From Escherichia coli (lineage in GTDB: Bacteria; Pseudomonadota; Gammaproteobacteria; Enterobacterales; Enterobacteriaceae): 4,727 bases of DNA. A program made the translations under genes and the position numbers. Below are positions 2,323 to 3,086 of the stretch, one piece after another. The stretch lies in the NCBI RefSeq assembly GCF_011045215.1, contig NZ_CP049203.1. The stretch is one strand, 5' to 3'. The first letter of the stretch is position 1; each line of letters begins with the position of its first letter. The notes beneath the pieces were generated by a model. The model had not been told where the DNA came from and did no database searches. It saw only the letters and a list, made by a program, of their open reading frames with translations.

Positions 2323-2498
2323 TTTTGTAGCACTGCCGCATCGGTGGCGGTGCTACAAAACATATCCTGTCCCGTCGATGGGGCAGGATATCACGTCCGT
2401 TAGTTTTCATCGTCCGGGGTGCAGGGGTGGCACTCCTGCCAGGCGTTTTGCTGAACGGCCATCACCGATGGCGGTTCAACAAAACATATCCTGTCCCG
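2323..2498. repeat. Two ~30-bp imperfect direct repeats (2345-2374 and 2469-2498) with associated inverted repeats
   Basis: tggcggt-NNN-acaaaacatatcctgtcccg occurs twice about 124 bp apart. An 11-bp inverted repeat ttttgtagcac / gtgctacaaaa (2323-2333 / 2350-2360) overlaps the first copy, and atatcctgtccc / ggggcaggatat (2362-2373 / 2380-2391) is a 12-bp inverted repeat with one mismatch. Confidence 0.55.
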
Positions 2499-2891: not shown

Positions 2892-3086
2892 GTGAACAAA
2901 CAGCAACAGACCGCGCTCAACATGGCGCGATTCATCAAAAGCCAGAGCCTGACATTACTCGGGAAACTTGACGCTCTGGACGCCGACGAACAGGCCACCC
3001 TGTGCGAACGGCTACACGAACTGGCGGAAGAACTCTGTGACAGCGTACAGACGCACTTTGAGGCGCAGTACAGCACGGAACCATAA
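2892..3086 (+). CDS. rop: Rop/Rom, RNA I-RNA II pairing modulator of ColE1-type replicons (64 aa, GTG start)
   Basis: MNKQQQTALNMARFIKSQSLTLLGKLDALDADEQATLCERLHELAEELC aligns along its length with pMB1/pBR322 Rop (MTKQEKTALNMARFIRSQTLTLLEKLNELDADEQADICESLHDHADELY, from memory). It is oriented toward the origin as in pBR322. Stop TAA at 3084-3086; GGAGA/GGGAGA precedes the GTG. Confidence 0.9.
   Translation: MNKQQQTALNMARFIKSQSLTLLGKLDALDADEQATLCERLHELAEELCDSVQTHFEAQYSTEP

Follow-up and report, generated by a model that had tools for sequence, protein, structure and literature searches.

A direct tandem of two predicted NikA/NikB-type transfer origins in a small ColE1-like plasmid sequence of Escherichia coli

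Supply of a helper relaxase in trans is the accepted model for the mobilization of plasmids whose only transfer element is an origin of transfer (oriT) (PMC10123127). Here we describe a 4,727-bp stretch of Escherichia coli DNA (contig NZ_CP049203.1; the whole stretch is called the window below) in which a pair of direct repeats lying between positions 2290 and 2502 probably constitutes two such origins, both of the family served by the accessory protein NikA and the relaxase NikB.

The oriTs of pCTX-M3 (IncM) and R64/ColIb-P9 (IncI1) are the reference members of this family. A 106-bp fragment of pCTX-M3 (nt 31,616-31,721) was shown experimentally to be enough for mobilization (PMC6112013), and this oriT consists of two inverted-repeat pairs and a nic site at ACATCTTG|T (PMC8125031). 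In R64, the arm called repeat A is bound by NikA (PMC4743918, PMC9282650). The repeats in the window resemble both oriTs in having a GGGGTGTCGGGGC..GCCCTGACC block, an inverted repeat of ~17 bp, and the nick-region sequence ATC(C/T)TG|TCCCG. The window differs from these plasmids in lacking nikA and nikB in cis, in carrying two units instead of one, and in its arm sequences.

Orphan oriTs of this type are known from small plasmids. The ColE1-type plasmid pEC156, which has no mob genes, was mobilized experimentally through an orphan R64-type oriT in trans (PMC4743918). Like the window, pEC156, pKPN2, and pSe-Kan are small and ColE1-type, carry cer and rom, lack a relaxase, and have an R64-like oriT (of 93 bp); they possess two oriTs, one F-type and one R64-type, for two helpers (PMC4743918). 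The oriTs of pEC156 belong to unrelated families (F/MOBF and R64/MOBP), whereas those of the window share a family, are neighbors on one strand with a spacing of 124 bp, and differ mainly in their inverted-repeat arms. Also similar are pCERC7, NTP16, and pU302S, which are small and have an R64-related oriT that depends on a relaxase of the I complex acting in trans (PMC9282650, citing Moran and Hall). These plasmids encode NikA themselves and have a single oriT with repeats of 20 bp, in contrast with the window, where no NikA homologue is encoded.

The closest conceptual parallel is the pWBG749 family of Staphylococcus aureus. There, nonconjugative plasmids carry oriT mimics of several subtypes that depend on a relaxase in trans, and the subtypes differ in one inverted repeat that matches the ribbon-helix-helix accessory proteins of the helpers (PMC4652767, PMC8136818). 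The relaxase family and the host phylum are different from those considered here, and in S. aureus the pairs lie on opposite strands, same-strand pairs being deleted by the relaxase (PMC4652767). No report of an adjacent, same-strand pair of two subtypes from one oriT family was found in the literature searched. The oriT copies of R6K (IncX) lie far apart and are inverted. With its multiple functional oriTs from a single family (bioRxiv 10.1101/2024.01.30.577996), R6K does resemble the window; it differs in being self-transmissible and in that its copies are a duplicated pair. An orphan oriT is a known kind of element, and it is the side-by-side pairing of two subtypes that is unusual; the finding refines the existing picture rather than overturning it.

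Two oriT units in direct tandem

The initial annotation of the window, made from the letters alone, had reported a pair of ~30-bp direct repeats about 124 bp apart with embedded inverted repeats. A repeat search recovered the pair as a 36-nt direct repeat (2339-2374 and 2463-2498; 89% identical, 124 bp from start to start). Within it, 20 nt are repeated exactly: this core, ACAAAACATATCCTGTCCCG, is found at 2355-2374 and 2479-2498 and nowhere else, each time on the + strand. None of 200 dinucleotide-preserving shuffles yielded even one match, so the repeat pair is confirmed. The motif first read for it, TGGCGGT-N3-acaaaacatatcctgtcccg, is exact as well (TGGCGGT GCT ACAAAAC... at 2345-2374 and TGGCGGT TCA ACAAAAC... 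at 2469-2498). A separate inverted repeat precedes each copy, and the arms at 2323-2337 and 2346-2360 are 93% complementary. When folded as single-stranded DNA, the unit 1 region reached -27.1 kcal/mol (z = -6.5) and the unit 2 region reached -20.2 kcal/mol (z = -3.5), and in neither case did any of 200 shuffles equal the native fold. The hairpin-forming capacity of the repeats had therefore been recognized correctly. Their size had been underestimated, since gapped alignment extends the homology to ~90 bp per unit (about 2290-2378 and 2413-2502), with only 71% identity outside the core. Gapped alignment was used because a 1-nt indel causes an ungapped in-register comparison at offset 124 to underrate how similar the units are upstream of the core.

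When positions 2300-2520 were used in a sensitive search of 72,556 plasmid records, 570 records matched, of which 370 were conjugative. The match in pUMNK88_Hly, Klebsiella oxytoca pKOR-5873, a Serratia plasmid, and Yersinia ruckeri pYR6 is intergenic, between a divergent mobA (nikA-like)-traI operon and mobC or an unnamed open reading frame that takes the place of mobC, which is where the oriT lies in the MOBP/MPF_I plasmid family. The same kind of oriT unit is also found in the intergenic region upstream of mobA in Klebsiella pneumoniae p1_130120 and in a Salmonella Gaminara plasmid. The latter is classed as "non-mobilizable" by MOB-suite; the other five are typed MPF_I and, except for pYR6, MOBP also. 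Proteins of pUMNK88_Hly scored 115.6 bits as MobA (cutoff, 80) and 425 bits as a TraI/MobA(P) relaxase (cutoff, 250), and its MobA is 45% identical to the NikA of IncI1.

Both units align end to end with the 106-bp pCTX-M3 oriT (sequence taken from NC_004464), which reads GGGGGTGTCGGGGCTTGCCCTGACC..TTTTTGGACGGCCGCC..GGCGGTACTCCAAAAACACATCTTG|TCCCG and has the nick-region sequence CACATCTTGTCCCG. Unit 1 was identical at 67 of 78 positions (score, 42) and unit 2 at 63 of 77 (score, 29), with a shuffle maximum of 14 in each case. Unit 2 is identical to the oriT of pUMNK88_Hly over 32 bp of arm and nick region, and the IncI1 (R64-type) and IncK2/Z oriTs have the same order of block, inverted repeat, and nick as both units. 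The sequence identity of the two units as NikAB-type oriTs is close to certain. One of the explanations first offered for the repeats, relics of an oriT or bom region, was correct as to oriT, given the alignment with R64 and pCTX-M3, but the units are intact rather than relics and are not a ColE1 bom. Because the window encodes no relaxase, they are orphan ("mimic") oriTs that would need the relaxase of a helper in trans; no cognate nikA-nikB (mobA-traI) pair adjoins them in the window.

Each unit follows the same plan: first an 8-bp inverted-repeat block corresponding to GGGGTGTCGGGGC..GCCCTGACC, then a ~17-bp inverted repeat, and finally a nick region with ATCCTG|TCCCG at its end. Unit 1 (2290-2378, + strand; type 1, arm GGCGGTGCTACAAAAC) is complete, as judged by alignment to the pCTX-M3 oriT and to mobA-mobC intergenic regions. 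Its distal inverted repeat, GTCGAGGC tgt GCCCTGAC (2298-2305/2309-2316), is the counterpart of the block in R64 and pCTX-M3 and pairs with one mismatch. The ~17-bp inverted repeat (arms 2323-2339 and 2344-2360) can form a 17-pair hairpin and shows compensatory changes. Its right, nick-proximal arm (2344-2360) appears to correspond to repeat A and is the predicted NikA site. The nick-region core (2355-2374) is the exact 20-nt repeat, and the predicted nick, G2369|T2370, was placed by homology with the pCTX-M3 site ACATCTTG|T (PMC8125031) and the IncI1-type site CACATCCTG|TCCCG. A second inverted repeat, ATATCCTGTCCCG tcga TGGGGCAGGATAT (2362-2374/2379-2391), forms a 13-pair hairpin that encloses the predicted nick and is conserved across the tandem modules described below. 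Half of this hairpin, 2379-2391 on the - strand, repeats the nick core in inverted orientation (ATATCCTGCCCC) and fits the pattern ATCCTG[CT] labeled "RP4"; since no NikA-type arm lies 5' of it, it is probably not an oriT for the second strand.

Unit 2 (2413-2502, + strand; type 2, arm GGCGGTTCAACAAAAC) follows a spacer at 2375-2412 and is likewise complete when aligned to the oriTs of pCTX-M3 and pUMNK88_Hly. Its distal inverted repeat, GCAGGGGT ggc ACTCCTGC (2421-2428/2432-2439), is in the same register as that of unit 1 but has a different sequence, diverged yet paired. The ~17-bp inverted repeat, TTTTGCTGAACGGCC ... GGCGGTTCAACAAAA (2446-2460/2470-2484), was identified by folding and covariation, and the nick-region core (2479-2498) has its predicted nick, again placed by homology, at G2493|T2494. 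The distance from the end of the proximal arm to the predicted nick is 9 nt in each unit, and CATATCCTGTCCCG, which conforms to ATC(C/T)TG|TCCC, is present in both. Only 2 of the 16 positions in the nick-proximal arms distinguish the units (GGTGCTAC versus GGTTCAAC), and the distal arms have changed to compensate. No conjugative source was found for the spacer and the unit 2 distal block; a query with 2370-2462 matched only small plasmids with the tandem and one F plasmid with an integrated fragment.

To characterize the paired regions, an alignment was made of 15 units drawn from 13 plasmids or plasmid fragments, one of them the window. The ATC, TG, and TCCC columns of the nick region were invariant in all 15, among them units from IncI1, IncK2/Z, and pUMNK88_Hly. 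In the two helices, 89.9% of cells were paired, versus 33 to 60% when the partners were slid. Helix 1, the distal block, was 98% paired, with three pairs changed on both sides, and helix 2, the ~17-bp inverted repeat, showed compensatory changes across the family. Over the two helices seven pairs had changed on both sides, a number reached by 2 of 500 shuffles, and the covariation score was 0.246 versus 0.137 (0 of 500 shuffles). Given the small sample and the relatedness of its sequences, this covariation is supportive rather than proof. In the distal block of unit 2, pairs 19/35, 20/34, and 25/29 have changed on both sides (UA->CG, CG->AU, and CG->UA), and all three of the pairs that differ between the unit 1 and unit 2 blocks are compensated.

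We interpret the region as two complete oriT units in direct tandem on the + strand, belonging to the NikA/NikB family (MOBP relaxase, MPF_I mating apparatus); a function of the tandem in mobilization is likely, with an overall probability that we estimate at about 0.8. The mechanism proposed is modeled on what is established for R64 and pCTX-M3. A coresident conjugative plasmid would supply NikA/MobA, a ribbon-helix-helix protein, which would bind the nick-proximal arm of the ~17-bp inverted repeat and recruit the NikB/TraI relaxase. The + strand would then be cut at ATCCTG|T (predicted at 2369|2370 and 2493|2494). The relaxase would stay on the 5' end and leave with the strand through the secretion system of the helper, and the inverted repeats would act at termination, on the strand that is rejoined. 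In this manner the plasmid is probably able to travel with larger conjugative plasmids. Nicking, mobilization, and a difference in specificity between the units are what we infer from the sequence.

The segment at 2540-2880 is the first DNA predicted to enter the recipient after a nick in unit 2, and it is rich in hairpins: one has perfect 13-bp arms (2633-2645/2655-2667), and another long one lies near 2817-2852. The segment folded to -67.3 kcal/mol (z = -3.6) when treated as single-stranded DNA. Positions 2533-2720 are 92 to 94% identical in many small E. coli plasmids. A role in single-strand initiation, or as a single-strand promoter, is possible for this segment.

Recurrence of the tandem and its arm types

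Comparison with related plasmids, which the initial annotation had proposed, showed that the tandem recurs. The combination of type 1 and type 2 units was found in 7 PLSDB plasmids, in one 3.5-kb contig among 100,044 species-representative genomes, and in 13 metagenome contigs; the modules compared came from 18 loci with 16 distinct sequences. Conservation of the cores among these loci holds by construction, because the search pattern fixed both cores. No such constraint applied to the arms, blocks, and spacer, and these are nearly constant. The tandem occurs on replicons of both the ColE1 type and the Col156 Rep type, and its neighbors vary: an open reading frame for an 81-amino-acid protein (the window and contigs L029 and L035), a ProQ/FinO gene (pRHB39-C22_5), or no gene (pRHB15-C07_4 and L030). 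MOB-suite typed the tandem-carrying relatives as "non-mobilizable" despite their full-length mimics of MOBP/MPF_I oriTs. Once such mimics are recognized, the mobility predicted for a whole group of small plasmids of enterobacteria changes, and these plasmids bear genes for bacteriocins, type VI secretion effectors, and lipases.

The 36-mer of type 1 occurs in 113 plasmid records, of which 102 are small and typed "non-mobilizable"; it is also present in a few MPF_I plasmids of K. oxytoca, Yersinia, and Serratia. The type 2 36-mer occurs in 38 records, 24 of them conjugative and pUMNK88_Hly-like. The arms closest to those of unit 1 are found in pKOR-5873 and in Yersinia and Serratia MPF_I plasmids, and those closest to unit 2 are found in pUMNK88_Hly-like plasmids. 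Judged by these distributions, each arm variant appears to mark different lineages of conjugative (helper) plasmids. The MobA/NikA proteins of the helper lineages are 49 to 60% identical and differ in their N-terminal segment. In ribbon-helix-helix proteins, this segment would form the strand that reads the DNA.

Helpers were found together with tandem plasmids in two strains. E. coli RHB39-C22 contains the tandem plasmid pRHB39-C22_5 and a MOBP/MPF_I plasmid bearing a type 2 oriT. Escherichia marmotae RHBSTW-00814 contains a type 2 MOBP/MPF_I conjugative helper, a tandem plasmid, and a single-oriT plasmid.

Relatives with the same flanks and a single oriT exist in two forms, both of which are 124-bp in-register deletions of the tandem. 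In form A (L016, L017, and L011), the unit 1 block and arms are joined at the core to the downstream flank of unit 2, and in form B (L002), the unit 1 block is joined to the unit 2 arms. Form A is the expected product of a relaxase that starts at the unit 2 nick and ends at the unit 1 nick. Since ordinary recombination in the identical core gives the same product, form A does not discriminate between the two routes.

Two further observations were made on the loci compared. L022 (NZ_JAABNO010000065.1, 3,522 bp), from an assembly named "Clostridium sp. C8-1-8," is 93 to 95% identical to enterobacterial tandem-oriT plasmids and probably comes from a contaminating or cocultured enterobacterium. 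In L011 (CP057981.1) and L025 (NZ_OX030702.1), fragments of small plasmids, consisting of the oriT unit(s) and a Rop or ProQ/FinO gene, lie inside large IncF (MOBF/MPF_F) plasmids, which therefore carry a second, foreign oriT.

Function of the pair and alternative explanations

Because the arms are typical of different helper lineages, the pair probably widens the set of helpers that can be used. That units 1 and 2 have different helper specificities is a tentative proposal built on the arm sequences. It is possible, though doubtful, that the tandem is a selected dual-specificity origin, with unit 1 serving pKOR-5873/Yersinia/Serratia-like MPF_I plasmids and unit 2 serving pUMNK88_Hly-like plasmids, and that it is also self-editing by virtue of its same-strand order. 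In self-editing, a helper that acts on both nicks would start at 2493|2494 and end at 2369|2370, which would yield the plasmid minus 124 bp. The product would be a single hybrid oriT with the arms of unit 1 and the downstream flank of unit 2, as in form A. As the pair is a same-strand tandem, deletion by the relaxase would remove only 124 nonessential bases. This heterotypic tandem of ~215 bp is a natural test bed for how few inverted-repeat changes set the specificity between NikA/NikB accessory proteins and oriTs. It can serve equally to ask whether oriT-to-oriT recombination driven by the relaxase shapes small plasmids in enterobacteria, as proposed for staphylococci.

Several points weigh against the tandem being a pair of working origins. 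In the window, A2302 unpairs one position of the unit 1 distal inverted repeat, a mismatch absent from most relatives: 15 of the 17 other tandem modules have G there, and the remaining 2 have a 1-nt deletion. The helpers coresident with tandem plasmids in the two strains examined are all type 2. R64-type and pCTX-M3 oriTs, which have many more differences, cross-mobilize at low frequency (PMC6112013); since just 2 of the 16 arm positions distinguish the units here, both may well be usable by one helper, in which case the second unit could be redundant. Same-strand oriT pairs are expected to be unstable in transfer because the relaxase can delete the intervening DNA, and in the two-oriT plasmids of S. 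aureus both copies are never on one strand (PMC4652767). No experiment on these sequences was found in the literature searched.

In the strongest alternative, only one unit works as an oriT and the other is a redundant passenger, left by recombination of related small plasmids with different subtypes and adding nothing to the helper range. The slight difference between the arms, at just two positions, fits this explanation, as does the finding of only type 2 coresident helpers. It is also favored by the single-oriT relatives, which have identical flanks and exist in both forms (type 1, L016, L017, and L011; type 2, L002), so that one unit is evidently enough, and by the tandem modules L015 and L030, which lack the unit 1 distal block. 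Against it, the core, arm, and hairpins are intact in both units across the 18 loci, 16 sequences, and two replicon types. A spare copy on the same strand should vanish readily by the 124-bp in-register deletion, yet the pair persists, and compensatory changes have preserved the distal-block hairpin of unit 2. A redundant second unit is therefore conceivable, and we regard it as unlikely.

Another suggestion of the initial annotation, that the repeats are binding sites for the neighboring small basic protein, is very improbable. Such sites might serve autoregulation or a plasmid-specific relaxosome accessory protein that replaces NikA. The open reading frame for the 81-amino-acid protein (1981-2226, - strand), which is not part of the element, does occupy the position and orientation that mobA/nikA has relative to the oriT of the helper plasmids, and its product is small and basic. 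However, the protein matched no family in Pfam or NCBIfam and gave no BLASTP alignment with NikA or MobA at E <= 100. Its structural model is a two-helix hairpin (predicted local distance difference test score, 81) without the ribbon-helix-helix strand, and a search of PDB folds with this model returned no match at E < 5. On these grounds a role as a NikA-like ribbon-helix-helix accessory protein was rejected. Only 9 homologues were found, all unnamed. One is in an IncK2/Z conjugative plasmid between nikB and trbC (85% DNA identity) and another is in a 40-kb contig near topB and hha, and neither has an oriT core nearby. The tandem, for its part, also stands beside ProQ/FinO genes or no gene. 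The 81-amino-acid protein is not tied to the repeats, and the context largely refutes the idea.

A recent in situ tandem duplication without selected function, the "duplication scar" once considered, is still less probable. The 20-nt core is exact and the repeat is direct, as a scar would be, but the exact core is the near-invariant part of the whole oriT family. Across 84 functional columns, the identity between the two units is 71%. The value for unit 1 against the oriTs of pKOR-5873 and pUMNK88_Hly is 81%, and for unit 2 against that of pUMNK88_Hly it is 82%. Each unit is nearer to a conjugative oriT than to the other unit, a pattern that refutes a fresh duplication. In addition, the differences cluster at paired positions and are compensated.

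The least probable explanation is that the repeats are iterons or other replication-control or partition repeats: although they are direct and the module lies ~420 bp upstream of the rep gene in the Col156-type plasmid L014, there are just two copies, 124 bp apart, instead of at least three close 17- to 22-bp direct repeats beside a rep gene, the window encodes Rop and no Rep in what appears to be an RNA-primed ColE1-type replicon, and the module is homologous to the transfer origins of hundreds of conjugative plasmids and present on two unrelated replicon types. The homology is enough to refute this explanation.

Replicon context and neighboring features

The window looks like a small ColE1-type plasmid, RNA primed as far as can be read from it. 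The Rop gene is at 2892-3086 (+ strand), and the same gene is annotated on related plasmids. No relaxase, NikA/MobA, accessory-protein, rep, or mating genes were found among the open reading frames of the window. There are likewise no mob/mbe open reading frames, and the ColE1 nick motif, T[AG]CTGGCTTA, is absent from both strands, so the window has no bom/oriT of the ColE1 kind (MbeA, MOB-HEN type; nick ..CTGG|CTTA). The nick motifs of F, RSF1010, and R388 are also absent from the window.

An Rfam scan of the whole window at gathering thresholds gave 0 matches, and hence no known RNA in the region. A promoter and terminator scan of 1900-2950 found no sigma-70-like sites and one terminator-like site, which is the chance level; the hairpins are thus not explained as terminators. 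A search of PLSDB and complete E. coli genomes gave no match to the window at >=80% coverage, and its closest relatives (98 to 99.9% identity) are only the metagenome contigs L029 and L035.

Elsewhere in the window, a 249-amino-acid open reading frame (59-808, - strand) encodes a protein with a His/Gly/Ser-rich N terminus and a Phage_lysozyme domain (PF00959; E = 4e-8). In front of it, at 852-867, stands a LexA-box-like sequence, CTGT-N8-ACAG (CTGTGTTTATATACAG); the window has two such motifs, with 0.06 expected by chance. From these features it looks like an SOS-induced lysozyme-type bacteriocin or lysis gene. A convergent 159-amino-acid open reading frame (4204-4683, - strand), for which no family was found, might be its immunity partner. 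Positions 1357-1591 hold a dense array of direct and inverted repeats of GCACCGT(A/T)AC(A/G)GTGC-like palindromes, adjoined by a cer-like XerCD site that was recognized by eye on the minus strand (about 1108-1140). The segment at 1415-1962 is conserved in many related contigs.

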